In this document: piece after piece, positions 2,933 through 41,844 of the stretch | How the letters are laid out: each line of letters begins with the position of its first letter | Numbering within the stretch: the stretch's first letter is position 1 | Source: Gammaproteobacteria bacterium | GTDB taxonomy: Bacteria; Pseudomonadota; Gammaproteobacteria; Porifericomitales; Porifericomitaceae | Assembly: GCA_014238615.1 (NCBI GenBank) | Contig: JABAAT010000038.1 | Coordinates: 78,363 to 142,362 of the forward strand | Reading direction: 5' to 3' | Length of the DNA stretch: 64,000 nt | The notes under the pieces: model-generated | The model's database searches: none | What the model saw: only the letters and a program-made list of their open reading frames with translations | Told to the model about the DNA's origin: nothing | Made by a program: the position numbers and the translations under genes

Positions 2933-3637
2933 TCAGATCCCCAGGTATGCCTTGCGTACATGCTCATTGCCCATAAGCTCCACGGCCGTTCCCTGCATCC
3001 TGAGGGAACCGGTCTCCAGGACATAGCCATAGCGCACCAATTCCAAGGCCAACTCGGCGTTCTGCTCCACCAGCAGGATGGAGATGCCGCGTCCCTGTAT
3101 TTCCCGTAGCAGGCGCGCGATGCCCTGCACGATCAACGGCGCCAGGCCCAGCGAAGGCTCGTCCAGCAGCAGCAGGCGGGGCCGCGCCATGAGAGCCCGG
3201 CCGATCGCGAGCATCTGCTGTTCACCGCCGCTCATGGTGCCGGCCTGCTGCCCTCCCCGCTCCTTAAGGCGCGGCAGGTGCTGGTAAACCCATTCCAGGT
3301 CGGTGTTGATGCCCGCGCGATCACGGCGCGTGTAGGCGCCGAGCTCCAGGTTTTCGCGCACGCTCAGATCCTTGAAGACGCGGCGGCCCTCCGGAACATG
3401 GGCGACGCCCAGGCGCACGATGCGATCCGCGGACAAGCCGTCCAGGCGCTGATCCCCGAAGTGGATTTCACCCCCGCGGATCGGCACCAGGCCGGAGATC
3501 GCGCGCAGCGCGCTGCTCTTGCCGGCACCGTTAGAGCCGATGATGGCGGAAAAACCGCCCTCCTCCACGCGCAGGGACAGGCCACGCAGCGCCGCCACCT
3601 TGCCGTAGCTTACATGCACATCATCCACCCTCAGCAT
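2933..3637 (-). CDS. HAAT-family ABC transporter ATP-binding protein (LivF/UrtE-like)
   Basis: Walker A GSNGAGKS, signature MSGGEQQML and Walker B LLLLDEPSLGLAP. Last gene of a five-gene transporter operon. Confidence 0.85.
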   Translation of the reverse strand: MLRVDDVHVSYGKVAALRGLSLRVEEGGFSAIIGSNGAGKSSALRAISGLVPIRGGEIHFGDQRLDGLSADRIVRLGVAHVPEGRRVFKDLSVRENLELGAYTRRDRAGINTDLEWVYQHLPRLKERGGQQAGTMSGGEQQMLAIGRALMARPRLLLLDEPSLGLAPLIVQGIARLLREIQGRGISILLVEQNAELALELVRYGYVLETGSLRMQGTAVELMGNEHVRKAYLGI

Positions 3638-4425
3638 GATGCGCGCTCCGTCCCACCGGCTGCGCTGCCCAGGTAGGCCTCAAGCACCGCCGGATCACGG
3701 CGGACCGACTCCGGCGTGCCCTCCGCCAGGAGCCGCCCGAAGTTCAGCACGGTGACGAAGTCGCAGAGCCCCATCACGGCTTTCATGTTGTGCTCCACCA
3801 GCACGATGGTGATCCCCGAGCGCCGCACCTTGCGGGTCAGTTCCATCATGTGCGCGGTCTCCGCCGGATTCATGCCCGCGAAAGGCTCGTCCAGCAGCAG
3901 CAGCCGCGGTTTTGCCAGCAGGGCGATACCCAAGGCCAGGGCCCGCTGCGAACCGAGCGGCAGTTCGGAGGCCAGCTGCGCCCGGCGTTCCCGCAGGCCC
4001 ACGAAATCCAGGATGCGCCCGGCAGCCTGCCGCTGCCGCTCCAAACGCTCCCGATCCAGGCCGAGCAGCGCCCTGAACAGGCCGGAGGACGCATGCAGGT
4101 GGCAGCCGGCCTCCAGGTTCCGCATGACGCTCAACTCCTGGAACAAGGTGGTCTCCTGGAAAGTGCGCACCACCCCGAGGCCGGCGATCTCGTACGGAGG
4201 GCGCCCGGAAATGGGGCGGCCGGCCAGCAGGATCTCCCCGGCACCGGGCCGGTAAAAACCGGCGATGTTCTTGAACAGGGTGCTCTTGCCGGCGCCGTTC
4301 GGCCCGATCAGGCCCCTGATCTCCCCCTCCCGCACCTGGAAACTGACCCGATCCAGGGCCACCAGGCCGCCGAAGCGCTTGCAGAGCCCCCGCACTTCCA
4401 GCAGGGGTGCCGCCGCCGTCGCCAT
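3631..4425 (-). CDS. HAAT-family ABC transporter ATP-binding protein (LivG/UrtD-like)
   Basis: GPNGAGKST and LLLLDEPFAGMNP motifs. Start taken at MATAAAPLLEVRGL; 7-bp overlap with the downstream ATPase. Confidence 0.85.
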   Translation of the reverse strand: MATAAAPLLEVRGLCKRFGGLVALDRVSFQVREGEIRGLIGPNGAGKSTLFKNIAGFYRPGAGEILLAGRPISGRPPYEIAGLGVVRTFQETTLFQELSVMRNLEAGCHLHASSGLFRALLGLDRERLERQRQAAGRILDFVGLRERRAQLASELPLGSQRALALGIALLAKPRLLLLDEPFAGMNPAETAHMMELTRKVRRSGITIVLVEHNMKAVMGLCDFVTVLNFGRLLAEGTPESVRRDPAVLEAYLGSAAGGTERASC

Positions 4426-4426
4426 C

Positions 4427-5413
4427 TCAGCCTTGCGCCGCCGCGACGCGCCGCCGCCAAAGCCCACGCAGACGGCCCGGCAGGCTCTCCAGGCCGTCCG
4501 GAAGGAAACGCATGCTGAGGAGCAGGATCAACCCGTAGATGGCCGGACGCCATTCGTCATACTGGCGGAAGATCTCGTTCAGAACAGACAGCACCACGAC
4601 CCCGATGACAGGACCGGCGAAGGTGCGGGTGCCGCCGATAATGACCCAGACCAGTATGTAGAGCATCTCGCCGATGGCAAACTGGTTCGGATTGATGCTG
4701 CCCAGGTAGTGCACGAAGAGGGCGCCCGCGAGGCCGGCGAAGAAGGCCCCGCAGGCGAAGGCCAGGGTCCGATAGCGCCAGCTGTTCACACCCACCGCCT
4801 CGGCCAGGGAGGGCTGCCAGTGCACCATGTGCAGGGTCAGACCGATGCGCGAGTGCTCCAGGCGATAGAGCAGCAGCAGGGAGACACAGGTCACGACCAG
4901 GAGCAGCAGGTAAAAAGGGATCGGCTCAACGAAGGACAGGGGCTGCTCCAGGAAAGGCAGTTGCAGCTCCAACGGGGGGATCAACTTCAGGCCCTTGGGG
5001 CCCCCGAAAGGATAGACAAAGTACTTCCAGGCCAGGCGGACGGCCTCGCCGGCGGCGTAGGAACCGATGAGGAAATAAAAACCCCGCATGCGCAGCAGCG
5101 GGAAACTGAGCAGCAGGGCGACGGCGGCGGTCAATAAAGCCGCCAGCGGTATGGACAGCCAGACGAGGAGGTCGGCGCGCTTGCTCAGCAGGGCGCTGGC
5201 ATAGCCGCCGCAGCCCATCAGCACCATGTGTATCAGCGACCATTCACCGCTTAGGGTCACGAGGCGGTAAGAAACCACCAGCATCACGTCCAGGAGCAGG
5301 AAAATCATGAAGTCCTGCCGGTGAAATGGCAGGAAGAAGGGCAGCGCGGCGAGCGCGGGCAGCAGTACCGCCGCCGCCAGCCACCAGCCGTGCCGGCGGG
5401 AGGCGCTATTCAC
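4427..5413 (-). CDS. HAAT-family ABC transporter permease (LivM/UrtC-like)
   Basis: Polytopic membrane protein with LivM-type conserved segments (GGYASALL..., INPNQFAIGEMLYILVWVIIGG). Confidence 0.8.
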   Translation of the reverse strand: MNSASRRHGWWLAAAVLLPALAALPFFLPFHRQDFMIFLLLDVMLVVSYRLVTLSGEWSLIHMVLMGCGGYASALLSKRADLLVWLSIPLAALLTAAVALLLSFPLLRMRGFYFLIGSYAAGEAVRLAWKYFVYPFGGPKGLKLIPPLELQLPFLEQPLSFVEPIPFYLLLLVVTCVSLLLLYRLEHSRIGLTLHMVHWQPSLAEAVGVNSWRYRTLAFACGAFFAGLAGALFVHYLGSINPNQFAIGEMLYILVWVIIGGTRTFAGPVIGVVVLSVLNEIFRQYDEWRPAIYGLILLLSMRFLPDGLESLPGRLRGLWRRRVAAAQG

Positions 5414-6276
5414 GCAGCCGGGATCCCATGAGGCCGGTGGGTTTGATCACCAGCACCAGCAGCATGATGAACAGGCCCAGCATCGTGGCCAGGGTGCCGC
5501 TGTAATAGGTCGTGACGAAAGTGTGGAAGAAGGCGTACAGCACGGCTGCAAGCACGGCCCCCCGGATGCTGCCGATGCCGCCTACGATGGCCACGATGAA
5601 GGCCGTGATGATCACCGCGTGTCCCATGTAGGGCTCGACGCGCACCAGCGGCGCCATGAGAGCGCCCGCGGTGCCGGCCAGGGCGGCGCCCAGGCCCATG
5701 GCGAACATGCCGATGCGCCGCACACTGATGCCCTGCAGCGCGGCTGCCTCCCGATCCATGGAAACCGCGCGCAGCGCCCAGCCCAGGCGGGTCCAGGTCA
5801 GCAGCCAGCCCACCGCGGCGAGCAGTCCCAGGGACACCACCAGGGCCACCGCACGCTGTACGGGAATGCGCACCTCGAAGGGCAGTTCCAGGGTGCCCGG
5901 AAAGGCCGGCGGCACATGCTTCATCAGGCCCAGGCCGCCGATCTGCACCGCGAGCACCTGCAGGATGAAAAGCAGGCCGATGGAATTGATGAGACCGCCC
6001 AGCGGGTTCTCCCGGAAGGGCTGAAACAGGAAGCGCTCCATGCACAGCCCAAGCAGGCACACGATGAGCGCCGCCGCGAGCAGCGCGAGCGGAAAAGGAA
6101 GCCCCTGTCCGGCGTACAGCAGCCAAACCGTGTAAGCCCCCACCATCACCATCTCGCCATGGGCGAAGTTGATAATGCCCATGACGCCGAAGATCAACAC
6201 CAGGCCCACGGCCCAGAGGCTGAAAAAGCCGCTCTGGACCAGCGCGTTGGCGATGCTTTGCAGTACCAGTTCCAAG
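5406..6276 (-). CDS. HAAT-family ABC transporter permease (LivH/UrtB-like); start uncertain, possibly the TTG at ~6276
   Basis: LELVLQSIANALVQSGFFSLWAVGLVLIFGVMGIINFAHGEMVMVGAY matches the LivH/UrtB N-terminus. No ATG lies near the expected start; the ORF track extends to 6416 into the binding-protein gene. Confidence 0.75.
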
Positions 6277-6340: not shown

Positions 6341-7615
6341 TCAGCCCTGCTGGTAATGCATCAGCCCCATGGCTTCCATGTGCTTGACCAGGAGATCCTT
6401 GTAACAGGACCACCATTCGGGGATGCTGCGGAACTCCTCGATGCGCGCCCGTCCGTCACGCACGGTGACCACCGGCCAGTTGCCCACCAGGGCGTTGTCA
6501 ATGCCCCAGAGCTCCTCGCCCCACCAGGAGGCGTCGCCGAAGGCATGCGGCGCGCGGCCGCCCTGCTTCATGGCCTCCAACACCGCCAGGGGCTCCACCG
6601 AAGCGGCCTGCTCCGCCGCCGCCTTCCACAGGTCCATGATGGAAGCGTACTCCCAGGCCACCGCCGACCACTGTCCGGGGTGGCGCTCAACGAACTTCTC
6701 GTAGAAGTCCTTCGGCCGCTTGAAGTTGATGAAGTCCTGGCGCAGGGCCGGGTCGTCGAAGTCCGGGAACTGGAAGATGAAGCCCTCCACGAACTCCTTG
6801 CTGGTCTTCTCGATGACGTCCTGGTAATTGTCAAAGGTACAGGAGATGATCTTGCCCTTGAAGCCCTGGTGAAAGAGTTGCTCCGTGATCAGGTTGACGT
6901 AATCCGCGTAGCAGGTGTCCAGGCAGACGATGTCCGGCCCGGAAGCCAGCATGGAGGTCACGACGGGGGCAAAGTCGGTGGTCGACGGATCGAAGATGTT
7001 CTGATCCACCACGTCGATGCCGGCCGCCTCGAAGGCCGCCAGGTAGGTCGCCACCGAGGGCAGCCCCAGGGAGTCATTCTGGGCGCAGATCGCGGCCCGC
7101 TTCAACTCCGGGAAGTTCTGGGCCATCCATTCCACTCCGGTCACGTTGTAGATCGGATGCACCTCGCAGGGAGCAATGTGGTAGGGAGCGTCCGGCGACA
7201 GGTCACTGGGCAACAGCGTGGAAGTCAGCAGCTTGCGCCGGGTGGCGAAAGGCTGCACCGCCGGCCAGGTGTCGCCGCCGAGCATCATGACGAACTTGAC
7301 ATCATGCTCGCCGACCAGCTTCTTCATACCCTGCAGGGCCTTGTCGGGAAGGTATTCGTTGTCGTAAGAAACGAACTCCACCTTGTAGTTGTCGCCGCCG
7401 ATGCGCAAACCGCCGGCGCGGTTCACCTCCTCGGCCCAGATTTCGCAGCCCTACAGACCCGGCAGGCCCCAGGCCGCCACCTCACCGGTAAGAGGCGCCA
7501 AAAAGCCGATCCGCACGGTGCGCGAAGCGGCACGCGCGGCGCCCGGCAGGCCACCGCAAACCATGACGCCGCCGAGCGCGGCGGCGCGCAACAATTCTCT
7601 ACGTGTAATAGCCAT
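6341..7615 (-). pseudogene. Periplasmic substrate-binding protein of the HAAT (amide/urea/branched-chain) ABC transporter with a Tat signal peptide; interrupted by an in-frame TAG at 7451-7453
   Basis: ORF 7451..7648 (MAITRRELLRAAALGG...TVRIGFLAPLTGEVAAWGLPGL*) and ORF 6341..7426 are in the same frame. The hand-read junction is ...GLPGL-TAG-GCEIWAEEVNRAGGLRIGG. AGGAGG RBS 7 nt before the ATG at 7613-7615. A Tyr is expected at the stop position by homology. Confidence 0.6.
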
Positions 7616-7729
7616 TTCTGATCCTCCTGGTGAATGAAACGCAAACACTCCCGGGGGAGCCTTTGCCTGTTTTCAACGATTGTCTCTGTGATTTCGTGGG
7701 TCCGGCGTGCCGCACGCCCGGGTAGAAGC

Positions 7730-8329
7730 TCAGGGGGTTTCCTCCTCCATGGGCCGCAGCTCCGCATAACGCCCGCGGAAATACAGCAGGGGCTCGGCGC
7801 GCGGCGCGTAGTGCACCACGCTGTCCACCTGTCCTACGAAAATGACATGGTCTCCTCCCTGGTAGGTGTAGTGCGTGCTGCAATCAAACACGGCCAATGA
7901 GTCCGGGAACCAGGGGCTGCCGTTCGGGGTTTGCCGCCATTCCGTGGTCGCCCATTTATCGCCCATGGGCACCGCGAAGCGCGTCGCCAGGTCGCGCTGT
8001 CGAGTGGACAGGACGCTGACCGCGAAATGCGCGGTGGAGAGGAAGGCTCGCAGGCTGTAGGCGCCCTTGTCCAGGCTGAACAACACCAGGGGCGGCTCAA
8101 GGGACACCGAACTGAAGGAATTCGCGGTGATGCCCAAGCGCTCCCCACGCTGCCCGCCGGCGGTGATGATGGTCACACCGGTGGCGAAATTGCCGAGAAC
8201 CCCACGCAGCTCCCCGCGGCTGAGCGGCGCCCGGGATTCCACAACGGGTTTTGACTCGGAGGATTCCGACACGATCTCCAGGGAGCTTCTTTCCGAGCGG
8301 CCGGCCGGGGAATGATCAGAGGCGGCCAT
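7730..8329 (-). CDS. NAD(P)H-dependent flavin reductase (HpaC/RutF-type, flavin_reduct domain)
   Basis: LRGVLGNFATGVTIITAGG...SFSSVSLEPPLVLFSL is typical of the small flavin reductases that partner two-component monooxygenases. Confidence 0.8.
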   Translation of the reverse strand: MAASDHSPAGRSERSSLEIVSESSESKPVVESRAPLSRGELRGVLGNFATGVTIITAGGQRGERLGITANSFSSVSLEPPLVLFSLDKGAYSLRAFLSTAHFAVSVLSTRQRDLATRFAVPMGDKWATTEWRQTPNGSPWFPDSLAVFDCSTHYTYQGGDHVIFVGQVDSVVHYAPRAEPLLYFRGRYAELRPMEEETP

Positions 8330-8331
8330 CG

Positions 8332-8660
8332 CTCAGGATTGCACCCGCTCTTTGCGCGGGTCGTAGAAGGGGCTCGGCACCACGCGCGCCGGGATGCGCT
8401 TCTGGTGACCGTCCAGCTTGCCCACCTCCACGGCGGCGCCCTCCGCGGCGATGCCGCGGCGCGGGATGCAGGATCTCGCGGGACGATGCGCCTTCACGGA
8501 TCCAGCACCGTGAGTCGGTCACCGGCCTGCAGTCCGAGCCGGATAGAGCCGCCGCCGTGGCCCTGGCAGCGCTCCCGCCCAGGCGGCAGGGCCGCCTGCC
8601 TTGACAGGGACGGCGTGGCCGGAGTGAGTACGGGGGATGCCGCCATTGGCAGGCCTTTAA
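8332..8660 (-). pseudogene. Collapsed remnant of a second tdm-like (DUF1989-GcvT) gene: ~57 N-terminal codons joined out of frame to ~40 C-terminal codons
   Basis: Bases 8332-8470 align to the 3' end of the intact gene at 14943-15075 (VEVGKLDGHQKRIPARVVP.PFYDPRKERV). Bases 8470-8660 align to its 5' end at 17150-17318 (MAxxxxLTPxxPxxSRxAxxPPGRERxQxxGGGSIxxGLQAGDRLTxLDP). Roughly 80-85% nucleotide identity, so this is not a recent copy. Confidence 0.6.
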
Positions 8661-10069
8661 GCCTTCCCGGAACCAGGTAGTGCCTTTTCGGACTCCGCCA
8701 CGAGGCGTTCGCCCAAGGCGCGTTTGGACTCCTTGTCAAGCTTTTTCAACTCGTTGTTCAGTACCCTTTCGTTGAGCGCCTGGTTCCAGTAGTCCAGCGA
8801 TTCGAAACCGAGCAGCACGGACTTGCCGACGAACTGGCGCAGCACTTCGTTGGTCGGTCCCATCACCCAGCCCGCCTTGCCGTCCCGCAGGTAGCGTTCA
8901 ATGCCCAAGGCCGGCTTGTAAGCGGTGCCGCCGCAGGCATGCAGCATCTTGTCCGAGACGTGGGCCACGTTCTTGGCGGCGGTGAACTTCACCTGCCACA
9001 TCCAGTGCAACAGGTCGGAGCGGGGCAGCGCCGAGACATCCCGGTGGATGGACCAATCGCAGTCACCGGTACAGCTGTCCAGGGCCTGGGCCATCATGAA
9101 AACCATGGCGCGCGAGGCGTTCGTGTCGATCAGCGCCTCCACGACGTAGTCCTGGATCGTCGGATAATCCGCCACCCGCATGCCCACATCAGCGTGTTTC
9201 TTGCGGGTGGTGTGCACCTTGGCGATATCAATGAGACCGAGTGAAATGCCGTTCCAACAGGAAGAAGACATGAGCAGGAAGAACGGATCCACCGCCTCGT
9301 CGTTGGAAACGGCGCCGTCACCCACGGGCCCCACGAGCCGGGCGGCCGGTATCTCGACCGCGTCGATCTGGATGGGGCCGGACTGGTTGCCGCGCAGGCC
9401 CAAACCGTCCCAGCTGGCCGGATCCGACTTGACCTCGTCGCCGAGAATCAGGAAGCAGGACAGGTTCGAATAATCGCCGCCGAAATCCGGGCTGGTGGTC
9501 TGTACGATGTACCAGTCCGCGAAACCGCCCGAAGTGGTCCAGGATGCCTTCTTATGAACCCGCCAGCCATGTTCGATACGCTCCGCCCGCGAGCTGACCG
9601 GGTACCAGAAGTGCGAGCCGGTCTCCGGATCGGAATAGGACAGGGTGCCGATCAGCACCTCCTTGTCCAGGCGCCCCATGAGCTCCTGGATCACCTGGTT
9701 GTCGTGATGACGCAGCAGGGCCGCGGCCACGGCGCCCGCGTGCATGGTATAGCACATGGCGGTGCTGGCACAGCCGTAGCGCGCGATGGTCTCCACCACC
9801 ATCGCCACACAGGCATGGTTCTCCCCCATGCCGCCCAACTCCTCCGGCACCAGCAGCCCCAGCACCCCGAGTTCGGCCAGCGCCTCAAAGTTCTTGCGCG
9901 GGTAAAGCAGCTTCTTGTCGCTCTCCACGGCGTTCTCGCGCAGAGTGGTGTGACACAGTTCGATCAGATCGGCCTGCAGGCGTTGCTGCTTGTCCGTCAG
10001 CACCCACTGCGGGTCATATTCATAACCCAACCCCCAAAAAGGTTCCGTACCCCATTTCTTGTTGCTCAT
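8657..10069 (-). CDS. Acyl-CoA-dehydrogenase-fold flavin-dependent oxygenase (group-D two-component monooxygenase-like: DszC/SfnB/IBAH family)
   Basis: ACAD N/M/C-domain signatures (LAELGVLGLLVPEELGGMGENH, ...GTLSYSDPETGSHFW..., ...YLRDGKAGWVMGPTNEVLRQF). Start taken at MSNKKWGT with a GGGGAG RBS. A flavin reductase lies 330 bp downstream in the same orientation. Confidence 0.75.
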   Translation of the reverse strand: MSNKKWGTEPFWGLGYEYDPQWVLTDKQQRLQADLIELCHTTLRENAVESDKKLLYPRKNFEALAELGVLGLLVPEELGGMGENHACVAMVVETIARYGCASTAMCYTMHAGAVAAALLRHHDNQVIQELMGRLDKEVLIGTLSYSDPETGSHFWYPVSSRAERIEHGWRVHKKASWTTSGGFADWYIVQTTSPDFGGDYSNLSCFLILGDEVKSDPASWDGLGLRGNQSGPIQIDAVEIPAARLVGPVGDGAVSNDEAVDPFFLLMSSSCWNGISLGLIDIAKVHTTRKKHADVGMRVADYPTIQDYVVEALIDTNASRAMVFMMAQALDSCTGDCDWSIHRDVSALPRSDLLHWMWQVKFTAAKNVAHVSDKMLHACGGTAYKPALGIERYLRDGKAGWVMGPTNEVLRQFVGKSVLLGFESLDYWNQALNERVLNNELKKLDKESKRALGERLVAESEKALPGSGKA

Positions 10070-10611: not shown

Positions 10612-12600
10612 TCAGGCCAGCCCCAATTCCTGCTTTCTGGGCAGCGCCCACCTGTTGATCAGATGGTCCATTGCAAGCCCCATAAAGGCGACACACAAGC
10701 CTAACACCAAGCCTTTACCCATATCGCTCTCGGAAAGCGCCTGCATGATTTCCTGTCCCAAATCCTGGGTTCCGATAAAGGCGCCGATAATCACCATGAA
10801 CAAAGCAAATATAACCGTTTGATTCACACCAAGCATAATATGTGGAAGCGCCAACGGCAGTTCGATCTTAAACAGCCTTTGTATCCTGCTCACACCCGAC
10901 ATCGTCGCCGCCTCCTGTAAACCCTGTGGAACACTGCGCAAACCCTCTATGGTGTAGCGCGTGGCTGGAATCGAGGCATAAATAATCACCGCGGTAAGCA
11001 CCGACACATCGTTGACCTGGAACAGCATGATCACGGGGATTAAATAGACGAAAGATGGAAAGGTCTGAAGAGTATCGCAAATCAACAGCGCGTACCTGGT
11101 CGTGAAGCTTCTGCGTGAGGCGATGATACCTATCGATAAACCAATGAACACAGAGATGAGCACCGAAAAACTGACCATGTAAGCGGTAATCATCGCTTTA
11201 TTCCACCAGCCGGTCAAGGCGATGAAGGCAAAGAAAGCGCCCACGATGAGCGCGGAGCGCACCCCGCCAAGGAACAGGCCGGCGCCCATCAGCAGGGCAA
11301 ACACCGCAACCATCGGCAGCGATGTATAAGCGTCCCGCATGGGAATTAATACTTCCACCAACAGGAAGGTTCGGAATTGCTGTAACCCGGAATACCAATT
11401 CCTCACAACCCAATCCACCATGAAATCCCAAAAAGGAGCAGTGGTGATCGCGACGGAGCGGGGAATCTTATAAGCATAAGGAAAAAACTTTGAGACGATG
11501 ATGCTGAGCAGCGTCAATCCGACAATGGCAAGCCAATATTTATAGCGTACATAAAAAGGCAGATCGGCGCGATAATCAGGCTGTTTGTGCGCCCAGGCCA
11601 GGGACAGCCTGTCAAGCACAATGGCGATCAGGACAATGGAAATACCAAGCTCCAGGGCCTTCCCAATCTTCAGGCTTCCCAACATCACCAGCAATGTATA
11701 ACCCAATCCGGAAGCGCCGATAAACGAAGCGATCACCACCATGGCCAGGCATTGCATGATCACCTGGTTCACACCAATCATGATGTCGTGCCGGGCCGAG
11801 GGTATCTGCACCTGGGTCAACAGCTGCAGGTTATTGCACCCACTCATCCTGCCGGATTCGAGCACCTCCACGGACACTTTCTTCAATCCCAGCAAAGTCA
11901 AGCGAATCATCGGTGGAGTCGCAAAAATAATCGTCGCAATCGCACCGGCGTTATCACCGATACCAAAGAAAACCAATACCGGAATCAGGTAGGAAAAATG
12001 GGGAAGCGATTGGGCGACATTCAACAAGGGAGCCAGCGTCAGCTCCACGACCTTGTACCTGTAAGCCAACACCCCCAGGGATAAGCCCAGAACCAGGGCA
12101 ATAGGCACCGCAACGAACACCAGGGATAAAGTACGCATGGAATCCTGCCATTGCCCGAAGACGGCCAGGTAGATCACGCTAAGGCCCGCAAGCAACGATA
12201 ATCTCCAGCCCTGCAGGGCGTAACCTATCACAAAGGCAATTCCCGCCACGGCGGTCCACGGCAGCGCCGGCAGGGCGAATCCCTTCCGCCCTCCCAGAAG
12301 AATGTTACGCACTACGTCAATACTCGACTGCAGCGCATCCGACACACCCCTGCTTATCAACATCACCGCCGTTGTCTCTTCCGCAAGATCTTCTTCCACG
12401 TCGATGACTGTAATCTTCCAGAATTCATCCTGCAGGAAGAACAAAGCCTGGTTCAGCCACTCGGCTATCGGCAATGTGACGGAGGCGGGCCACGTGAGCA
12501 GCCAACCCGGCATCACACCCTTCCCTGCCACCAATACGGCGAATACGATAAAGAGAAGGGCAACCTGTATTGACTTACGGTCTGTGGGCAGGTGTACCAT
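10612..12600 (-). CDS. Glycine-betaine/TMAO-type ABC transporter permease with two fused ProW-like domains (TmoW-like)
   Basis: 662-aa polytopic protein with two BPD_transp_1 cores (EAA-like loops). Confidence 0.8.
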   Translation of the reverse strand: MVHLPTDRKSIQVALLFIVFAVLVAGKGVMPGWLLTWPASVTLPIAEWLNQALFFLQDEFWKITVIDVEEDLAEETTAVMLISRGVSDALQSSIDVVRNILLGGRKGFALPALPWTAVAGIAFVIGYALQGWRLSLLAGLSVIYLAVFGQWQDSMRTLSLVFVAVPIALVLGLSLGVLAYRYKVVELTLAPLLNVAQSLPHFSYLIPVLVFFGIGDNAGAIATIIFATPPMIRLTLLGLKKVSVEVLESGRMSGCNNLQLLTQVQIPSARHDIMIGVNQVIMQCLAMVVIASFIGASGLGYTLLVMLGSLKIGKALELGISIVLIAIVLDRLSLAWAHKQPDYRADLPFYVRYKYWLAIVGLTLLSIIVSKFFPYAYKIPRSVAITTAPFWDFMVDWVVRNWYSGLQQFRTFLLVEVLIPMRDAYTSLPMVAVFALLMGAGLFLGGVRSALIVGAFFAFIALTGWWNKAMITAYMVSFSVLISVFIGLSIGIIASRRSFTTRYALLICDTLQTFPSFVYLIPVIMLFQVNDVSVLTAVIIYASIPATRYTIEGLRSVPQGLQEAATMSGVSRIQRLFKIELPLALPHIMLGVNQTVIFALFMVIIGAFIGTQDLGQEIMQALSESDMGKGLVLGLCVAFMGLAMDHLINRWALPRKQELGLA

Positions 12601-12634
12601 GGGGTTGCCTGTCGGGGACTAAGCGCCGGACCCC

Positions 12635-13672
12635 TTAGCTGGGCTTCCCGAATAAAATATGCAGTATCCTCTTGCAGTTTAAAACACCGATAATTTCCCC
12701 CTGCCCATCAACCACGGCGACCGGTTTGGTTGCAGACAACACCCGCTCGGCAACCTGCTCAATGATGACATCGGCTGCAACGGTGAATTCACTCAACTCC
12801 TGCCCTTCCTGCTTCGGCTCCATCACGGACGCCGTGGTCAGGACCCGCTCGCGCGGGACTTCGTTGGTAAATTTTTTCACATAGTCGGTCACCGGATTGA
12901 GTACAATATCAACCGGGGCGCCGATTTGCTCAACTCTGCCGTGGTACATAATGGCGATTCTATCCGCCAATCGCAGGGCCTCATCAAAATCATGGGTAAT
13001 AAACACGATGGTCTTGTTCAGCAGGGACTGCAGGCGCAGAAATTCGTCCTGCATTTCACGGCGAATCAGCGGATCCAAGGCTGAGAAAGGCTCATCCAAA
13101 AACCAGATATCGGGTTCCACCGCCAGCGATCGGGCGATGCCTACACGCTGCTGCTGCCCTCCCGACAACTCTCGCGGGAAACTCTTTTCGCGACCCACTA
13201 AGCCCACCAATTCGATCATTTCCCGCGCACGCCCGTGGCTGTCAGCGGTCTTTACACCTTTGACCTGCAGGGGAAAAGCAATATTTTCCAGAACGGTTTT
13301 ATGCGGGAGTAAGGCGAAATTCTGGAACACCATCCCCATCTTATGACGGCGAAGCTCTATCAGATCCTTGTTGCGCATCTTCAACAAGTCTTGACCGTCG
13401 ATGAGGATTTCCCCCGCGGTCGCGTCAGTCAGGCGGGAAATACAACGTACCAAGGTCGATTTACCCGAGCCGGACAGACCCATCACCACCAGCATTTCTC
13501 CCTGGTGTACCTCCAGGGAAACATTATTCACGCCAATAATGCAGCCTGCCTTACTGAACTCTTCCTCATCTACCCGGCCCTTGCTTTCTTCCAGCAGTTT
13601 CCGGGCGTTCTCCCCAAAAATTTTGTACACGGAACGGCATTCTATAACCGCCTGTGCCTTCTCTTCCGCCAT
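12635..13672 (-). CDS. Glycine-betaine/TMAO-type ABC transporter ATP-binding protein (ProV/TmoV-like)
   Basis: GLSGSGKST, LSGGQQQRVGIARSL and IWFLDEPFSALD motifs, followed by a C-terminal CBS-like tail. Confidence 0.85.
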   Translation of the reverse strand: MAEEKAQAVIECRSVYKIFGENARKLLEESKGRVDEEEFSKAGCIIGVNNVSLEVHQGEMLVVMGLSGSGKSTLVRCISRLTDATAGEILIDGQDLLKMRNKDLIELRRHKMGMVFQNFALLPHKTVLENIAFPLQVKGVKTADSHGRAREMIELVGLVGREKSFPRELSGGQQQRVGIARSLAVEPDIWFLDEPFSALDPLIRREMQDEFLRLQSLLNKTIVFITHDFDEALRLADRIAIMYHGRVEQIGAPVDIVLNPVTDYVKKFTNEVPRERVLTTASVMEPKQEGQELSEFTVAADVIIEQVAERVLSATKPVAVVDGQGEIIGVLNCKRILHILFGKPS

Positions 13673-13770
13673 GCGCGCTTAACCTCTAGAGAGGATCCAA
13701 TTACCAAAGGCACTTGCCGCGGCAAACGCGCGCGGCAAGTACCCCTGGTAACGGATAGTTTTTCGTCTGA

Positions 13771-14715
13771 TTAATCTTTAAGCCATGGTTTCCAGGCAGC
13801 TTCATTGTCTGCAAGCCACTTATCCGCAGCCTCTTCGTGCTCTAAACCGTCGATATCCACCAACTTCGCCATGGTCGCGATTTGCACCTTGTCGAAATCA
13901 ATGCGCGTCAGCAGTTTGTAGGCTGCCGGCCACTTTTTCGGCATTTGATAATAGGCCGCCTTCTTCAACCAACCCGCCGGCGGGCTGCCGCAAACACCAT
14001 CACCGCCATCTTCCTTCCTGCAACCTTCATAATACTCCGGGAACTCGATAAAGTCACCCCCGTAAAGCGCATCGGTGAAATTAGGCGACCAGTTGAACAG
14101 TACGATGGGCTTGTTGTTTTTCTTGGCGGCTTCCAATTCCGCCCATAAGGCAGCCGCGGAACCGGCGAACACAGCCTTATAATCCATCTTTAAGGCTTCA
14201 ATGCGGTCCTTGGTCTCCTGCCCGTGCCAATCAGCCGGACCATCCAGGTAACGGCCCAAAGGCGCGGTTTCCGGGCTGCTGAATGTCTCCGCACAGGCGT
14301 TGAGCGCCTCCCAGCTGGGCAATCCCGGACAAAACTCGGTCACGTAAGCAGGATACCACCATTCTTCCCGGGTTTTTGCCGTATGGGTGCCCGCATCAAT
14401 GATGCCGCCCTTGTCCAATGCCTCGTTAAAGGATTTTCCAAAGGTACTTTGCCAAACTTCCATAGAGACGGTGACATCGCCACGGCGAATCGATTCATAC
14501 ACCGCCTGGCTGTCCGCCGGTTTGTACTCAACATTATCACCGAGTTTCTCAAACAACTTACCGACAACGTAAGACATGACGATCTGACTGGACCAGTTGT
14601 GCGTCGGGAGGATAATCGGATCCTTGGAATCCGCAGCCACCGCCCATCCTGACAGACCAGCCAGCAGCATACTGACAAGCGCCACCGGCAATAGTTTTCT
14701 AAGCATGAATTTCAT
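13771..14715 (-). CDS. OpuAC-family periplasmic substrate-binding protein (glycine betaine/choline/TMAO-binding, TmoX-like)
   Basis: Signal peptide MKFMLRKLLPVALVSMLLAGLSGWAVA, then an OpuAC-like fold sequence. First gene of the transporter operon adjacent to the tdm-like gene. Confidence 0.8.
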   Translation of the reverse strand: MKFMLRKLLPVALVSMLLAGLSGWAVAADSKDPIILPTHNWSSQIVMSYVVGKLFEKLGDNVEYKPADSQAVYESIRRGDVTVSMEVWQSTFGKSFNEALDKGGIIDAGTHTAKTREEWWYPAYVTEFCPGLPSWEALNACAETFSSPETAPLGRYLDGPADWHGQETKDRIEALKMDYKAVFAGSAAALWAELEAAKKNNKPIVLFNWSPNFTDALYGGDFIEFPEYYEGCRKEDGGDGVCGSPPAGWLKKAAYYQMPKKWPAAYKLLTRIDFDKVQIATMAKLVDIDGLEHEEAADKWLADNEAAWKPWLKD

Positions 14716-14942
14716 AATTCAGATACTCCCTAAAAATGACCTGCAAAGCCCTTCCTAGATAAGGTCCTTGCTACAGTGATAGCTTGCGCCATGAACCCGG
14801 TACACCGCCCGCTACAGGCGACGCATCGGGATTTTCTTATCGCGCGGGACACTCCGTATAGCCGTATAGCACCGCGCCCTTGAAAATACGAAAAATTCCG
14901 GCCGGGATGTCGAACAGGAATGGGGCGGAGGCAGTCACCGCG

Positions 14943-17318
14943 TCAAGCCCGCACCCGTTCCTTGCGTGGGTCGTAGAAGGGGATCGGCACCACGCGCGCC
15001 GGAATGCGCTTCTGGTGACCATCCAGCTTACCCACCTCCACGGCAGCACCCTCCTCGGCGGCACTGACATCCATGCGGCATAAGGCGATATTGCGGCGCA
15101 GGACAGGCGAGCGCACGGCGCTGGTCACCACCCCTGTCTGGGCACGACCCTGGTGCACGCAGTCACCGTGCCCGGCCGCTTCGTTGCCCTCCAGTTCCAG
15201 TCCTACCAAGCGTCGCTGCGGGTGCGCCTTGCGCTTTTCCAGGGCCGCCCGGCCCACGAAATCGTCCTGCTTGCCGCGCAGCGGCACGCAAAAGCCGATG
15301 CCGGCCTCAAAAGGATCGGTTTGATCGCAGAATTCGTAGCCGGCGAAGACCAGGCCGGCCTCAATCCGCAGCATATCCAGGGCCTCCAGGCCCAGGGGCG
15401 CCAACCCCAGGGGCTGTCCGGCCTTCCAAAGCGCGTCCCAGACTTCAACAGCGGCGTCCGGATGACACCAAAGTTCATAACCCAGCTCACCCGTATAGCC
15501 GGTACGCGAAATCATCAGGGGAACACCCTTGAGATCCCCCAGGCGACCGATCGTAAAACGGAACCACTGCAGTTCCTCCAGGGTCGGTTGCGCCGGGGGC
15601 GTCCAGATCAGTTCGCGCAGCAATTCACGCGAGCGCGGCCCCTGCACGGCGATATTGTGGAGCTGATCCGTGGAGGATTTGACCCAAACCCGGTATTTCT
15701 TTTCCTTGGCCTGCTTGCGCAACCAGTCGCCGCCGTATTCCTCACCGCAGATCCAGCGAAAGTTATCGGCTCCAAGTCGGAATAAAGTACCGTCATCCAA
15801 CATGCCGCCGCTCGGGTAACACATGGCCGAGTAAACTACCTGCCCCACCGCCAGGCGCCGCACGTCGCGGGTGATCGACCACTGCATCAGCGCCTCCGCA
15901 TCCGGACCGAACACCTCAAATTTGCGCAACGGGGAAAGATCCATGACCGCAACGCGCTCCCGGCAGGCATGATACTCCTCGATGGTGCCGTATTCCTGGT
16001 AGGAAGTCGGGAGCCAATACCCCCGGTACTCAGTAAAACGCCGCGTCAGCGCGGAACTGCGGGGGTGAAAAGCCGTTTCGCGGGTCATTCGGGTCTCCGA
16101 GTCGGGGTGCAGACGGAAAGCAACGGCCTTGCTGAACATATGCCGTGAAGGATAGACTCGCACCTGCACATCGGTGGGATTCCAGCCATTCGCCGGATCA
16201 ATGTCGTCCGGGCAGGCCGAGGAAGAGCAGACCAAATCGGTCAGGGCGCGCAGCAACACGTAGTCGCCCGGACGGGACCAGGATTCATCCAGGTAAATAC
16301 TATTTGAATCATCAATACCGGTGTTGTAGAAAAAATTCACGGCCGGCCAGGCAGGGCGTGCCCGCACACCGTAATCCCGCAAGGCCGCGTTGAAGTTATC
16401 CGAACAGTTCGGGTGTCCGAAATAGCCACGTTCCTCGTAAAACCTGGCATAGCAGGCCAGGCCAAAGGTGTCGTGCCGGCCGCAGGTGTCACGCACCACC
16501 TCCAGCAAGGGGTTTAGATCCTGATCGTAGAACTTGGAGTACAGGCCGGGCTGCGGACAGGTAAAGCCCATCAGGGAGCGCGTGGCAGTGGCATCCAGGC
16601 TGTTCTCCCGGCCCGCCTCCAAGGGCGCGTGTGCGAAGGCCAGGAAGTCTGAACATTGGTGACCGGCGATATCCATCACCTGGATGTATTCTCCGGCACG
16701 CACCAGGTAGGCGTGCGCGGTACGCGCCTGGATACGCAGATCCAGGCGCGCTTCAGCCAAGGGCTCAGGCAGAGACTCAAGCGGGTTCGGAACCTCAATC
16801 GGATGCTCCCGATCCACGAAAGCGATCAATTCCGTGGCGGGCCGATGGCCGGCCACGGCGCCCTCTATCGGCATCGCACCGCCCACCGACACCAGGATGC
16901 AGTTGCAGGCCACCGCCGCGCGCAATTCCCGGCGCAATCCGGGCTCGGAGTCAGGCGCGAAGAGGCGCACGCCGCGCAGGTGTCCCCGATCGGCCACGGT
17001 CGCCTGGAGACGCTTGCGCAAACGCGCGGCGTTCGGATCCGCCGCCAACTGCAAGAGCGCCTCGCGTGCGGGTGGCAGATCGGAGGCATTCAACAGATTC
17101 GCGTCACTTTTCCCCGTCTCATCAAACACCAGGATCTCACAAGGCTGTGCGCCTTCCGGGTCCAGCAACGTAAGCCGGTCACCCGCCTGCAGACCGATCC
17201 AAATCGAGCCGCCGCCGGGGACCTGGTAGCGCTCCCGCCCGGGCGGCGGGGTCGCCAGCCTCGACAAGAACGGGGTGGCCGGGGGAACCGTCGGAGTCAG
17301 TGACAGGGCTACCGCCAT
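14943..17318 (-). CDS. tdm: DUF1989-GcvT fusion protein, trimethylamine N-oxide demethylase (Tdm)-like
   Basis: 791 aa. The N-terminal ~400 aa resemble the DUF1989/urea-carboxylase-associated family. The C-terminal ~380 aa form an aminomethyltransferase (GcvT) fold (RERVAVMDLSPLRKFEVFGPDA...GYTGELGYELW...). This is the architecture of characterised Tdm, next to a betaine-type transporter. Confidence 0.65.
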   Translation of the reverse strand: MAVALSLTPTVPPATPFLSRLATPPPGRERYQVPGGGSIWIGLQAGDRLTLLDPEGAQPCEILVFDETGKSDANLLNASDLPPAREALLQLAADPNAARLRKRLQATVADRGHLRGVRLFAPDSEPGLRRELRAAVACNCILVSVGGAMPIEGAVAGHRPATELIAFVDREHPIEVPNPLESLPEPLAEARLDLRIQARTAHAYLVRAGEYIQVMDIAGHQCSDFLAFAHAPLEAGRENSLDATATRSLMGFTCPQPGLYSKFYDQDLNPLLEVVRDTCGRHDTFGLACYARFYEERGYFGHPNCSDNFNAALRDYGVRARPAWPAVNFFYNTGIDDSNSIYLDESWSRPGDYVLLRALTDLVCSSSACPDDIDPANGWNPTDVQVRVYPSRHMFSKAVAFRLHPDSETRMTRETAFHPRSSALTRRFTEYRGYWLPTSYQEYGTIEEYHACRERVAVMDLSPLRKFEVFGPDAEALMQWSITRDVRRLAVGQVVYSAMCYPSGGMLDDGTLFRLGADNFRWICGEEYGGDWLRKQAKEKKYRVWVKSSTDQLHNIAVQGPRSRELLRELIWTPPAQPTLEELQWFRFTIGRLGDLKGVPLMISRTGYTGELGYELWCHPDAAVEVWDALWKAGQPLGLAPLGLEALDMLRIEAGLVFAGYEFCDQTDPFEAGIGFCVPLRGKQDDFVGRAALEKRKAHPQRRLVGLELEGNEAAGHGDCVHQGRAQTGVVTSAVRSPVLRRNIALCRMDVSAAEEGAAVEVGKLDGHQKRIPARVVPIPFYDPRKERVRA

Positions 17319-17667: not shown

Positions 17668-18444
17668 CTATTTCCGGGCTCCTTTTTCCCCGAACGCCTG
17701 TGGGGCCTCCTCCCACGCACCCAGAAAAGCGTCACAGCCGACCGGAACGCCGTCAAACTCGAGCGCGGCGTCCCCGATACACTCCCACAGGTATTCGGCC
17801 GCGGCGCTGTCCATCAGCAGGTGGTAGGCGGGCAGTGCCGGCGCGCCGGCACACACGCAATCCTCCCGCAGCAGCAGGACATTCATGCGCGCCATGACCG
17901 TCTGCGCCACCCGCAGATTGGGGAAACGATGCGTCCGCAGATCCAGCGCGCAGAGCTTGGCAAACATGGCCGGCGCCTGGGTGCCGCCGATCCGCAGCCA
18001 GGCCGAAAGCGACTGGCGCGGCACCGGGAAGACCCCGGACGGCCGCTCTTTTTCCCAGTCCGCCGCACAACGCTGACATGCCTCGGCCGCGGCCCGCGCC
18101 GCTCCCAGCAACAGTGCCTCGTCACCCATACGCGCCGCCAGCAGGCCGTCCCGGGAACACCTGGTTTCGCCGCTCTCGCCCACACCCAGACCCCGTGCGC
18201 GTAACCAGGAAAGCGCCTCCCAGCCCTTGTAACCAAGCCGCGGCAAGGGGCTGAAGTCGGCCCAGGCCAGGCACCGCAAACGCTCCTCCTCCTCCGGCGA
18301 CGCACCGCAGTCCGCGACAACCACCGTGTCCGCAAAAGCTCGGCAACGGGCGCCGGCTGCTTCAAGGCGCCGATACAGCGGGCTGCGCGCAACGCCATCG
18401 GTCGCCCGGGGAGCAGCGTTCTTACTCTCTTTCACCATCTTCAA
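17668..18444 (-). CDS. Sarcosine oxidase gamma-subunit family protein (SoxG/MgdD-like)
   Basis: Last gene of the B-D-A-G operon; 4-bp overlap with the alpha subunit. Size and position fit SoxG. Confidence 0.65.
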   Translation of the reverse strand: MKMVKESKNAAPRATDGVARSPLYRRLEAAGARCRAFADTVVVADCGASPEEEERLRCLAWADFSPLPRLGYKGWEALSWLRARGLGVGESGETRCSRDGLLAARMGDEALLLGAARAAAEACQRCAADWEKERPSGVFPVPRQSLSAWLRIGGTQAPAMFAKLCALDLRTHRFPNLRVAQTVMARMNVLLLREDCVCAGAPALPAYHLLMDSAAAEYLWECIGDAALEFDGVPVGCDAFLGAWEEAPQAFGEKGARK

Positions 18445-21425
18445 ACTTCCTGGCGCTGGTTTCCCGCATCGTAGAAGGGGGCAGCCACCACGCGCGCCTG
18501 CAAGATGAGCTTTTCATCCTTGCTTTTGCCGTGCGGCGCCTGTCCCTTGATATGCAGCACTTCGCCGACCTTGGAGTCGCTCGGTGCGTAAGCCAGGCCG
18601 ATGGTTTTGCGCAGGGCCGGCGACCAGGCCACCGAGGTAACATGACCAACGATGGCGCCGTTGCGCAGCAACAGGCTGGATTCCCGAAGCAGCGTTCCCA
18701 AATCCGGATCATCCCCCGCCTCAAAAGCGACCAGGCGGCGATCGGACAACTGGTGCCGAGCGCGCAACTCCAGGGAGCGTCCACCAACAAAGAACGGTTT
18801 TTTGCCGGCTACCGCCCAGTCCATCTGCAGCTCTTGAGGGGTACTCATGGCATCGGTGTCCTGGCCGATGATCACGTGTCCTTTTTCCAGGCGCAGCACG
18901 CGCTGCGCCTCGATGCCCACCGGCCGCACGCCGAACTCTACGCCGCCGCGCAGCAAGGCGTCCCAGAGCGCCTCACCGTGGGTTGAAGGCACATGGATTT
19001 CGTAGCCCAGTTCGCCCACGAAGCCGATCCGCAGGAGCCGCGCCGGGAGACCCGCGACACGCCCGCAACGCACTCCCAGGTAAGGAAAGTCCGAAGCTTC
19101 AAGCCGCAGGTCTGCCGCACATACGCTCCGCAACACCTCGCGCGCCCGGGGGCCGGACAGGCTGACCCCGGCGTAGGCGGCAGTGACGTTGCAGATATCC
19201 ACGCGCAAACGCCACTGCGCGTTCCACCACAGCATGTTGCGGTAAACATTCTCCACCCCACCGGTGGTCGCGGTCACGTAGAAATGATCCTCGGCGAGGC
19301 GGCAGGCCACCCCATCATCCGTCACGACCCCCGCCTCGTTGGTCATGAGCACGTAGCGTACCCGGCCCACCGGTTGCTTCTTGTAAGCAAACGTGTAGAT
19401 CCGGTTCAGGAATTCGGCCGCGTCCGGCCCACGCACTTCCAGGCCGCCCAAGGTGGAGACATCGATCATGCCGACCCCATTGCGCACCGCCAGCACTTCC
19501 TCCTGAATGCACTGCTCCCGCGCGGCCTCTCCCGGTGAATAATAAGCTGGTCGCCACCACAGGCCGGCCGCCAACATGCGCGCCCCGGCCTCCAGGTGCC
19601 GGTGATGCATGGCAGTGCGCCGCTCCGGTTCAAAGCAACGCCCGGCGAGCACCCCCAGTTTTTCGGCAGCCACGGGCGGCCGCGCCGTGGTCACACCCAC
19701 CCGCGCCGGCTCGCTCCCGGTGGCGCGCGCCACCAGGCGCGCCGTCGCCAGCGCCGAGTGGCGCCCCTGGGAAGGCCCCATGCCCACCGTGGAATAGCGC
19801 TTGACCAACTCCAGCTCCGCGTAGCCGTCGGCGCAGGCGTTCAGGATATCGGCGATCTGCAGATCCTCGTCGCGATCCACGAATTCCTTGCCGCGCGCAT
19901 GCTGGAAGATGGGCCAGACCGGGGACGCGGCGCCGCTCTCCTCCGGGGACGGGAAATCCTGCGCCGCTTCGCCGTCCCCCCCATTCCCGGCAAGCGCGGC
20001 GACGGCGGCGGCGCCGACCGCCCGACCGTCCGCCAGCACCTCTTCCAGGCTCCTGAAACCGCGCACGGCGCCGGCCAGGCGTACCCGTTCCGGCAAACCG
20101 CTGATCCGAAATCCCTCCAGGTCCCCGGCATGGCTCAGGCGCGCGCCGGCCTGCAAGGGCAGCTGGTAGGTCGGCATGCGGCCCACACTCATGCACAACA
20201 GGTCGCATTCCAGGCGCACTTTAGAGTCCTCGCAGGAACCCCCGGAGATGATGTGAGCGAGCCGCACGGCCGCCAGATGACCGCCGCGCCCGGCCTCGGC
20301 TTCCAACACGCAGCTGCCGGAAAACACTCCCAGGCCACGCCGCACCACCTCCTGGAAACAGTCGCCCTCCGGGGCCGGACGCATATCGACGACCGCGCTC
20401 ACTTCCACCCCGGCTTCCAGCAGATCCAAGGCCACCTCGTAGCCATCCGCGGCGGCCGTGAGCACCACGGCGCGCCGCCCGGGCCGTACCCCGTAGAGAC
20501 GCAGCAGGCGCTGCGCGGCCGAGCCCAGGATCACACCGGGCAGGTCATTGTTGCGGAACACGGCGGGCTGCTCCATGACGCCGGTGGCCAGGATCAGTTC
20601 GCGTGCGCGCAGCTTGTAGAGCCGTCGGCCTTGCACCAGGGGCAGCCAGTTATCGGCGAACCAAGCGTTGCAGAGCGTACCGGAAAGGAACTCAATATTC
20701 GGTGTCTCCGCCACCTCGCGCAACAATTCATCGCGCCGCCCGGACTCGCCGTCCGGCACGTCGCGGGCATAATTCAGCATCCCACCGGGCCGCTCCTCCT
20801 GCTCCACCAACAGCACCTCGCACCCGCCGCGAGCCGCTTCCAGGGCCGCCGCCATACCGGCCGCACCGGCCCCGATCACGGCCACATCACAGAAACGGTA
20901 CATTTTGTCGTAATAAGCCGGAGGCGCATCGCGCCGCACCCGCCCAAGACCGGTCATGGCGCGCACGATGGGTTCCCAGAAATACTGCCACGCAAGGCGC
21001 GGCCGATACATGGCCTTATAGTAGAAACCGACCGGCAGGAAGCGTGAGAAAATACCGAGCAACGCCGATGGATCCCAGCGCAGGCCGAAGGGACCGCAGT
21101 TCTGAGCGCGTATCTCCATGCCATCGCGTAAAGCTTCCATATCAGCCTGAACATTTGCTTCGCCGTTCACCCGCACCAAGGTGTCAGCCTCCAGGCCGGC
21201 CATGGAAAGCGGGCCGCGCGGCCGGTGGTACTTGAAGGAACGCGACAACATCCAGACGCCGTTGGCGAGCAGGGCGCTGGCGATGCTATCCCCCTCGAGG
21301 CCGCTGTACGCGCGACCTTCATAGCGAAACCGCAGCGGCCGATCGCGCCGCACACACAGTCCCGCGGGAGCCGGCAGACGCCAAGGGGCGTCCGCGGCCA
21401 GCGGCGTTGCGGCCGCCTTGCTCAT
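18441..21425 (-). CDS. Sarcosine oxidase alpha-subunit family protein (SoxA/MgdC-like) with FAD/NAD-binding and GcvT-like domains
   Basis: 994 aa. VAVIGAGAAGMAAALEAARGG Rossmann motif, and a C-terminal aminomethyltransferase fold (GELGYEIHVP). Confidence 0.85.
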   Translation of the reverse strand: MSKAAATPLAADAPWRLPAPAGLCVRRDRPLRFRYEGRAYSGLEGDSIASALLANGVWMLSRSFKYHRPRGPLSMAGLEADTLVRVNGEANVQADMEALRDGMEIRAQNCGPFGLRWDPSALLGIFSRFLPVGFYYKAMYRPRLAWQYFWEPIVRAMTGLGRVRRDAPPAYYDKMYRFCDVAVIGAGAAGMAAALEAARGGCEVLLVEQEERPGGMLNYARDVPDGESGRRDELLREVAETPNIEFLSGTLCNAWFADNWLPLVQGRRLYKLRARELILATGVMEQPAVFRNNDLPGVILGSAAQRLLRLYGVRPGRRAVVLTAAADGYEVALDLLEAGVEVSAVVDMRPAPEGDCFQEVVRRGLGVFSGSCVLEAEAGRGGHLAAVRLAHIISGGSCEDSKVRLECDLLCMSVGRMPTYQLPLQAGARLSHAGDLEGFRISGLPERVRLAGAVRGFRSLEEVLADGRAVGAAAVAALAGNGGDGEAAQDFPSPEESGAASPVWPIFQHARGKEFVDRDEDLQIADILNACADGYAELELVKRYSTVGMGPSQGRHSALATARLVARATGSEPARVGVTTARPPVAAEKLGVLAGRCFEPERRTAMHHRHLEAGARMLAAGLWWRPAYYSPGEAAREQCIQEEVLAVRNGVGMIDVSTLGGLEVRGPDAAEFLNRIYTFAYKKQPVGRVRYVLMTNEAGVVTDDGVACRLAEDHFYVTATTGGVENVYRNMLWWNAQWRLRVDICNVTAAYAGVSLSGPRAREVLRSVCAADLRLEASDFPYLGVRCGRVAGLPARLLRIGFVGELGYEIHVPSTHGEALWDALLRGGVEFGVRPVGIEAQRVLRLEKGHVIIGQDTDAMSTPQELQMDWAVAGKKPFFVGGRSLELRARHQLSDRRLVAFEAGDDPDLGTLLRESSLLLRNGAIVGHVTSVAWSPALRKTIGLAYAPSDSKVGEVLHIKGQAPHGKSKDEKLILQARVVAAPFYDAGNQRQEV

Positions 21426-21724: not shown

Positions 21725-21767
21725 GGTCGGCTCCGGACGATACCCAAAACAAACTCAGCAGGCAGGA

Positions 21768-37409: not shown

Positions 37410-37452
37410 GGCGAGTACCCCGACCAACTCCCCCACCCTAAGGAACCTTAAC

Positions 37453-41543: not shown

Positions 41544-41844
41544 GGCTCTTCTTTCCCAGGCTCTTCTTTCCAGCTCCTCTTCCTCCTCCGGGGCTCCTCT
41601 CGGAGTCCCCTTGAAGAGGGCTTGAGAACTTGAGGGCGGGGGCCTGGGGGTGATCTCGATCGCGGCCGGTTCACTGGATACCGGCCTGTCGGCTGGATCA
41701 TCAAGAAAGACAACCGGTTCCCGGCAAGGCCATCATCCAACCATGCAACGCCCCTCCCCGGGAGAACTGCGGGAAAACGGTAAGCACGATAGGATGGGCG
41801 GGGCCCTTTTCAATTCACGGGGACGACATCCCACGGGAACGACA

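Follow-up and report, generated by a model that had tools for sequence, protein, structure and literature searches.

A single in-frame amber codon interrupts a HAAT-family substrate-binding protein gene in a gammaproteobacterial methylated-amine locus, probably marking a young pseudogene

Results

An in-frame amber codon splits the first gene of an ABC importer operon

The gene studied here lies on the minus strand of a 64,000-nucleotide stretch of gammaproteobacterial DNA, which we refer to as the window. Its ends, read from the sequence and its translation, are an ATG at 7615-7613 and a terminal TGA at 6343-6341. Minus-strand translation of 6341-7648 gives a single internal stop, with MAITRRELLRAAALGGVMVCGGLPGAARAASRTVRIGFLAPLTGEVAAWGLPGL before it and GCEIWAEEVNRAGG... 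after it; in the translation, the residues around the stop read MAITRRELL...AAWGLPGL on the N-terminal side and GCEIWAEEVN on the other. The gene and its parts are as follows.

6341-7615, minus strand: whole interrupted gene, 424 codons plus TGA, for a Peripla_BP_6 / HAAT-family periplasmic substrate-binding protein
7451-7453, minus strand: in-frame amber TAG, codon 55 (the plus strand reads CTA)
7454-7615, minus strand: N-terminal piece of 54 codons, comprising the signal peptide and the first conserved strand/loop (RIGFLAPLTGEVAAWGLPGL)
6341-7426, minus strand: 361-aa ORF with a GTG start at 7426, the gene-caller version, without the signal peptide and without the first conserved strand
7623-7628, minus strand: Shine-Dalgarno sequence (AGGAGG) with a spacer of 7 nt to the ATG, read from the sequence

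The 54-aa ORF, which is listed with its stop as 7451-7615, is called as a separate gene on eight contigs. Its translation contains a twin-arginine-like motif (TRRELL), a hydrophobic stretch and ARA-AS, and both R5 and R6 are invariant in an alignment of 25 homologs. The Pfam TAT_signal model gave no match to the 54-aa piece at E <= 1; one homolog cluster has a precomputed PF10518 match. The Tat export named in the preliminary description is putative, the TRRELL motif and the invariant RR pair being its basis. Judged by these features, the expression signals of the interrupted gene (Shine-Dalgarno sequence, start codon and signal peptide) look intact. The motif GAGGAG abuts the GTG at 7426 with zero spacer. 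Among the approximately 50 called genes in the window, this is the only one that a check of called genes found to be split by an in-frame stop.

Four transporter genes follow directly downstream.

5406-6275, minus strand: permease (BPD_transp_2; gene call and Pfam)
4427-5413, minus strand: permease (BPD_transp_2; gene call and Pfam)
3631-4425, minus strand: ABC ATPase (gene call and Pfam)
2933-3637, minus strand: ABC ATPase (gene call and Pfam)

All four (2933-6275) are intact, and in relatives they find tblastn matches that cover the greater part or the whole of each gene at 50-74% identity. By Pfam, one of the two ATPases carries a BCA_ABC_TP_C tail besides ABC_tran. At the end of the operon, a 300-aa ORF on the minus strand (2065-2967) has no Pfam or NCBIfam match; it shares 35 nt with the last ATPase gene and 31 nt with a convergent GATase gene, and a 43%-identical homolog stands after the transporter genes in locus L006.

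The operon adjoins the scar of a second tdm gene within a methylated-amine island

Immediately upstream of the interrupted gene are two genes that appear intact and, between them, the remains of a gene for trimethylamine N-oxide (TMAO) demethylase, tdm.

7730-8329, minus strand: flavin reductase gene, 199 aa (Pfam), flanking the scar
8333-8646, minus strand: scar of a second tdm copy, in which about 50 N-terminal codons are fused to 38 C-terminal codons and about 700 codons are deleted
8657-10069, minus strand: acyl-CoA-dehydrogenase-fold gene, 470 aa (Pfam, NCBIfam), flanking the scar

The scar, two genes upstream of the binding-protein gene, appears in the gene calls as two small "genes" of 50 and 54 aa. 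Compared with the intact tdm of the window (14943-17318), its N-terminal part matches at 66% of amino acids and 82% of nucleotides, and its C-terminal part at 89% and 91%, respectively (blastx, blastn). The syntenic position in relatives holds a full-length tdm match in L016 and L055 and a match to the C-terminal half in L029, and in all three loci the tdm match adjoins the same acyl-CoA-dehydrogenase-fold and binding-protein genes. These three loci are alphaproteobacterial; their matches to the acyl-CoA-dehydrogenase-fold protein are nearly full length, at 71-80% identity, and the flavin reductase finds matches, likewise nearly full length, only in L016 and L029, at 50-52% identity. The acyl-CoA-dehydrogenase-fold protein also has weak NCBIfam matches to SfnB, DszC, HsaA and HpaH-type oxygenase components. 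Taken as a pair, the proteins encoded on either side of the scar look like a putative two-component flavin monooxygenase in a methylated-amine locus.

An intact neighboring module, tdm with a TmoXWV-like transporter, spans 10612-17318 on the minus strand, and further genes lie beyond it.

14943-17318, minus strand: intact tdm, 791 aa (NCBIfam NF053776, TMAO demethylase; score 1205 bits, cut-off 1100)
13771-14715, 12635-13672 and 10612-12600, minus strand: OpuAC-type ABC transporter resembling TmoXWV (Pfam)
17668-23009: sarcosine-oxidase-like subunits
34068-35543: GS-like gene
35623-38841: GATase/GXGXG/Glu_synthase genes
39805-41208: ammonium transporter

The sarcosine-oxidase-like, GS-like and GATase/GXGXG/Glu_synthase genes are arranged in what we take to be the layout of the N-methylglutamate pathway. 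On its predicted gene content, the window is a methylated-amine utilization island. The region 17668-41208 also encodes a two-component system, a PAS-GGDEF-EAL protein and two Gcw_chp proteins.

The two reading frames encode one protein, with tyrosine expected at the stop

Pfam Peripla_BP_6 (PF13458) matches residues 33-388 of the reconstructed protein with an E value of 1.8e-48, covering profile positions 1-342 of 343, and the match is continuous across the stop. Thus, the two ORFs are not a chance juxtaposition. A homolog search returned 1982 relatives, and the best 120 listed are all 420-452 aa long, except for the window's own 361-aa fragment. We aligned 25 homologs of 420-452 aa that are 64-78% identical to the window protein, and none of them is interrupted. 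A preliminary description of this DNA had proposed that the N-terminal ORF and the 361-aa body share one frame and are separated by a single TAG at 7451-7453, and that they are collinear halves of one binding protein of an HAAT ABC transporter. The translation agrees with the first proposal, and the Pfam domain and the homolog alignment agree with the second; the assignment to a HAAT transporter is borne out by the full-length Peripla_BP_6 match and by the two BPD_transp_2 permeases and two ATPases directly downstream.

The preliminary description had also suggested an alignment with homologs as a check on the residue expected at the stop, which it took to be aromatic. In our alignment, the stop column holds Tyr in 23 of the 25 homologs and Asp in the other 2, within the motif PLTGEVAAWGLPGL-Y-GCEIWAE. 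Across 80 genomic loci, the codons found at this site are GAC (39), GAT (11), TAC (20), TAT (8), TTC (2) and AAT (1). The residue follows clade, with Tyr in the nearer clade (WGLPGLYG) and Asp, accompanied by Lys51, in the more distant one (WGKPGLDG). The claim of an aromatic residue is therefore right for the nearer clade, but it does not extend to the distant homologs, the majority of which carry Asp in this column. Relatives returned by the scan of the genome collection were at most 78% identical.

Residues 51 and 55 covary in the alignment and in loci L003-L029: Leu51 is paired with Tyr55 in one clade and Lys51 with Asp55 in another, and there is one case of Ala51 with Phe55. This pattern suggests that the two residues may be in direct contact, hydrophobic in one clade and through a salt bridge in the other. 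The window protein has Leu51, so Tyr is expected at position 55. All 13 Tyr codons of the interrupted gene are TAC and none is TAT, which points to TAC as the ancestral codon and to TAC>TAG as the change. Most likely, then, codon 55 was TAC (Tyr55) and was altered by a C>G substitution at its third position. This is in line with the earlier remark that the TAG is one substitution from TAY: a single base separates the stop from the Tyr codon that the closest homologs carry.

The binding protein belongs to a subfamily linked to TMAO demethylase

The structurally characterized relatives in the PDB are distant, comprising amino-acid, Leu and urea binders with E values of 1e-12 to 1e-3. The nearest is an Agrobacterium amino-acid binder (3ip5; E 2.5e-12), and the urea binders follow at approximately 1e-5. 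In 27 of 80 genomes, a member of the binding-protein subfamily is encoded within 10 kb of a TMAO-demethylase homolog that is 46-73% identical to the Tdm of the window. These genomes include Roseovarius, Methyloceanibacter, Methyloligella, and Gammaproteobacteria and Kiloniellales metagenome-assembled genomes (MAGs). This linkage to TMAO demethylase genes makes a branched-chain amino acid an improbable ligand, and gene context makes the subfamily a candidate importer of a methylated amine. A literature search for the ligand of the tdm-linked binding-protein subfamily found no relevant paper, and one for the sample or run accessions gave no result.

The stop codon is shared by assemblies that differ elsewhere

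The window can be compared with several other public consensus sequences. ENA contig ERZ23490334 scaffold_1 (213,768 bp) differs from it by a single-nucleotide polymorphism (SNP) at 2710 within the first 17.6 kb and, elsewhere, by a SNP at 50346 and by the length of a repeat at 41543-41581, where an indel covers roughly 45 bp. Among the Logan assemblies, SRR11455655 differs from the window at 38440 and SRR11455656 at 50346. The single-base differences at 2710, 38440 and 50346 indicate that several near-identical consensus sequences of the organism exist. The repeat is a short intergenic direct repeat (GGCTCTTCTTTCC...) that follows a 78-aa ORF; the ENA sequence carries the additional 45 bp or so, and the difference would be either a strain variant or an assembly variant in length.

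The ENA sequence (L001, L002) has the identical TAG despite the SNP at 2710. In an exact-sequence look-up, the 54-aa and 361-aa products were both found on eight contigs from NCBI, ENA and Logan, which come from assemblies that may partly share reads; by coordinate arithmetic, the gene falls inside the 47-kb Logan contig SRR11455656_62124. When the JGI metagenome collection was searched for the exact flanks of the codon, as a 42-base pattern in which the codon itself was given as NNN, no conspecific contig, and hence no intact allele, was recovered. The stop is present in several assemblies that differ elsewhere, which makes a sequencing error unlikely, and it thus appears from these consensus sequences to be a property of the organism rather than of one assembly.

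The contrary reading takes TAC for the true or dominant allele and the TAG for a sequencing, assembly or consensus artefact, either an error or a promoted minority variant. In its favor, the source is a metagenome assembly, known here from consensus sequences alone, and several of the public assemblies may come from overlapping read sets. However, the TAG is common to the window and a SNP-distinct ENA contig; both ORF products recur on eight contigs of varied size from three sources (NCBI, ENA and Logan), the 47-kb SRR11455656 contig among them; and the same random error is very unlikely to arise in independent consensus sequences. We therefore consider an artefact very unlikely. The preliminary description had listed a sequencing error as one of its options, and the TAG shared by SNP-distinct consensus sequences weighs against that option.

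The remainder of the gene is undamaged

At 130 alignment columns that are otherwise invariant, the window protein departs only once, by a conservative K>R change; in the same comparison, intact homologs show 0-3 departures, with one outlier at 7. The absence of other damage in the gene, together with the intact downstream genes, indicates that the mutation is recent on the scale of sequence divergence.

TAG is an ordinary terminator in the window

The stop codons of the 49 called genes of the window are TGA (33), TAA (10) and TAG (6), counting the internal TAG. TAG thus terminates 5 of the 48 other called genes, including the permease gene directly downstream of the interrupted gene, and on this ground a genome-wide reassignment of TAG was rejected. 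The check for in-frame stops was made on called genes, a GC3-based scan being too noisy. Beyond the binding-protein gene, it flagged the scar ORF at 8333-8497 and the flavin reductase gene, which is preceded by the scar; one further flag was a chance open stretch upstream of 46394.

A tRNA scan of the 64-kb window found none, and an Rfam scan of the same 64 kb gave no match. Compared with shuffled sequence, the 131 nt surrounding and following the stop show no excess of folding stability (z = -0.20). When the JGI metagenome collection was searched with a degenerate motif that has TAR (TAG or TAA) at the codon, no match appeared; in a local control, the motif with any codon at this position had 81 matches in 80 homologous loci, all of them sense codons. 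The UAG is accordingly unconserved at this site, which is a sense codon in 25 of 25 homologs and in 81 of 81 motif matches.

By comparison of ClpA, the host falls among uncultivated Gammaproteobacteria: one ENA relative is 79% identical, and the best named relatives, at approximately 62-66%, are Gammaproteobacteria MAGs, Thiohalophilus, Thioalkalispiraceae and Methylohalomonas lacus.

Discussion

The data are best explained by a recent TAC>TAG nonsense mutation that has turned the binding-protein gene into a young pseudogene, a reading that we hold with a probability of about 0.78. As expected of a pseudogene, the in-frame stop falls within a domain that is continuous in the homologs. Of the options offered in the preliminary description, a recent nonsense mutation inactivating uptake is the one favored here, with the loss of uptake itself following by argument from the truncation.

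The same observations must be weighed against the several ways in which the downstream part of the gene might still be translated. Termination could be leaky: near-cognate decoding that inserts Tyr, Gln or some other amino acid, or a suppressor tRNA whose gene lies elsewhere, might yield enough full-length protein to leave the gene attenuated rather than dead. The gene shows no damage beyond the stop, with its Shine-Dalgarno sequence, start and signal peptide in place; the family accepts Y, D, F or N at this position; and the absence of further decay fits a retained function equally well as a very recent mutation. Basal UAG readthrough in bacteria is non-zero, on the order of 0.01-1%, but such a level would yield at most about 1% of the normal amount of protein. 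Moreover, the window holds no tRNA, the RNA downstream of the stop has no unusual structure (z = -0.20), TAG ends five other genes of the window while no other gene has an in-frame TAG, and no homolog in the JGI metagenomes has TAG or TAA at this codon. We regard leaky termination as unlikely. It is highly improbable that the TAG is, beyond this, maintained and decoded (for example as Tyr, via an amber suppressor or efficient near-cognate readthrough), such that the binding protein would be held at a deliberately low or conditional level; were it so, the decoded TAG would represent a natural attenuation of an ABC transporter by a stop codon in a free-living gammaproteobacterium. The preliminary description had ranked readthrough as its less likely option, and its programmed form finds no support in the tRNA scan, the RNA folding, the homologs, which have no stop here, or the use of TAG as a normal terminator.

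The metabolic setting raises the idea of programmed UAG recoding, by pyrrolysine or another dedicated readthrough system. Pyrrolysine occurs in methylamine methyltransferases, and the locus lies within a methylated-amine island with tdm, a TmoXWV-like transporter, and GS-like, Mgs-like and Sox-like genes. Yet the interrupted protein is a binding protein rather than a methyltransferase, the local pathway is of the Tdm / N-methylglutamate type, homologs have Tyr or Asp at the site and never a stop, no stem-loop follows the stop, and TAG is a normal terminator in the window. The host is, in addition, a gammaproteobacterium, and no Pyl system is known from that group. The probability of recoding is, in our estimate, close to nil. 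Reinitiation at the GTG at 7426, 24 nt past the stop, would instead give a 361-aa protein that stays in the cytoplasm and serves a new function. Gene callers do report this 361-aa ORF, and GAGGAG adjoins its GTG; however, the spacing between GAGGAG and the GTG is zero, the product would be without a signal peptide and without the conserved PLTGEVAAWGLPGLYG segment, and the other 119 homologs listed are all at least 420 aa long. This origin for a functional protein is barely credible. Both pyrrolysine, with a site that is never a stop in homologs, and reinitiation at the GTG at 7426, with no spacer after GAGGAG, were rejected.

Under the favored reading, the lead gene of a LivJ/HMGF-type (HAAT) importer operon would recently have acquired a nonsense mutation when G replaced C in the third position of TAC (Tyr55), giving TAG. 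Translation would then stop after 54 residues, leaving only the signal peptide and the first strand/loop. Such a product lacks the rest of the domain and so should neither bind ligand nor dock to the permease, and since the importer needs its binding protein, it would be disabled. Loss of uptake via this importer is thus the expected consequence, as far as the truncated product allows us to infer. By transcriptional polarity, the permease and ATPase genes behind the stop may also be expressed at a lower level. Redundancy with the intact parallel module may be the reason that the loss is tolerated: this module is already without its tdm and the parallel one is intact, which makes a tolerated loss of function the natural reading.

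Taken with the nonsense mutation, the internal deletion that left the tdm scar suggests that this module of the island is losing genes. The locus would then capture one of two parallel methylated-amine modules in the course of being dismantled, by a deletion in tdm and a nonsense mutation in the binding-protein gene. As a single young pseudogene in a metagenome-assembled genome, the interrupted gene is of little importance in itself. It does have a value for annotation, in that the 54-aa and 361-aa "genes" of the public records would be two halves of one broken gene. Of greater interest than the stop is its context, an uncharacterized HAAT subfamily that stands beside tdm in many Alpha- and Gammaproteobacteria.

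With the LivJ/LivK-type HAAT binders (TC 3.A.1.4), among them the binders of urea and short-chain amides (UrtA, FmdD and AmiC-like proteins), the window protein shares Peripla_BP_6 over its full length, and with LivJ/LivK-type systems it shares an operon having two LivH/LivM-type permeases and two LivG/LivF-type ATPases. It differs from those binders in having no NCBIfam equivalog, scoring 30 bits against a LivJ-like cut-off of 477 bits, and in that the gene here is broken by a stop. The in-frame UAG in a methylamine-linked gene recalls the Pyl-UAG methyltransferases MtmB, MtbB and MttB; in contrast to those, the UAG here is unconserved, the protein is of another family, the window has no tRNA, no structure accompanies the stop, and TAG is an ordinary stop. 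With ordinary nonsense pseudogenes, the event shares one in-frame stop in a conserved domain, a single substitution away from the ancestral sense codon, in a gene and an operon that are otherwise intact, and the remnant of a neighboring gene marks decay of the locus. No feature separates the event from ordinary pseudogenes, and it is a textbook nonsense mutation.
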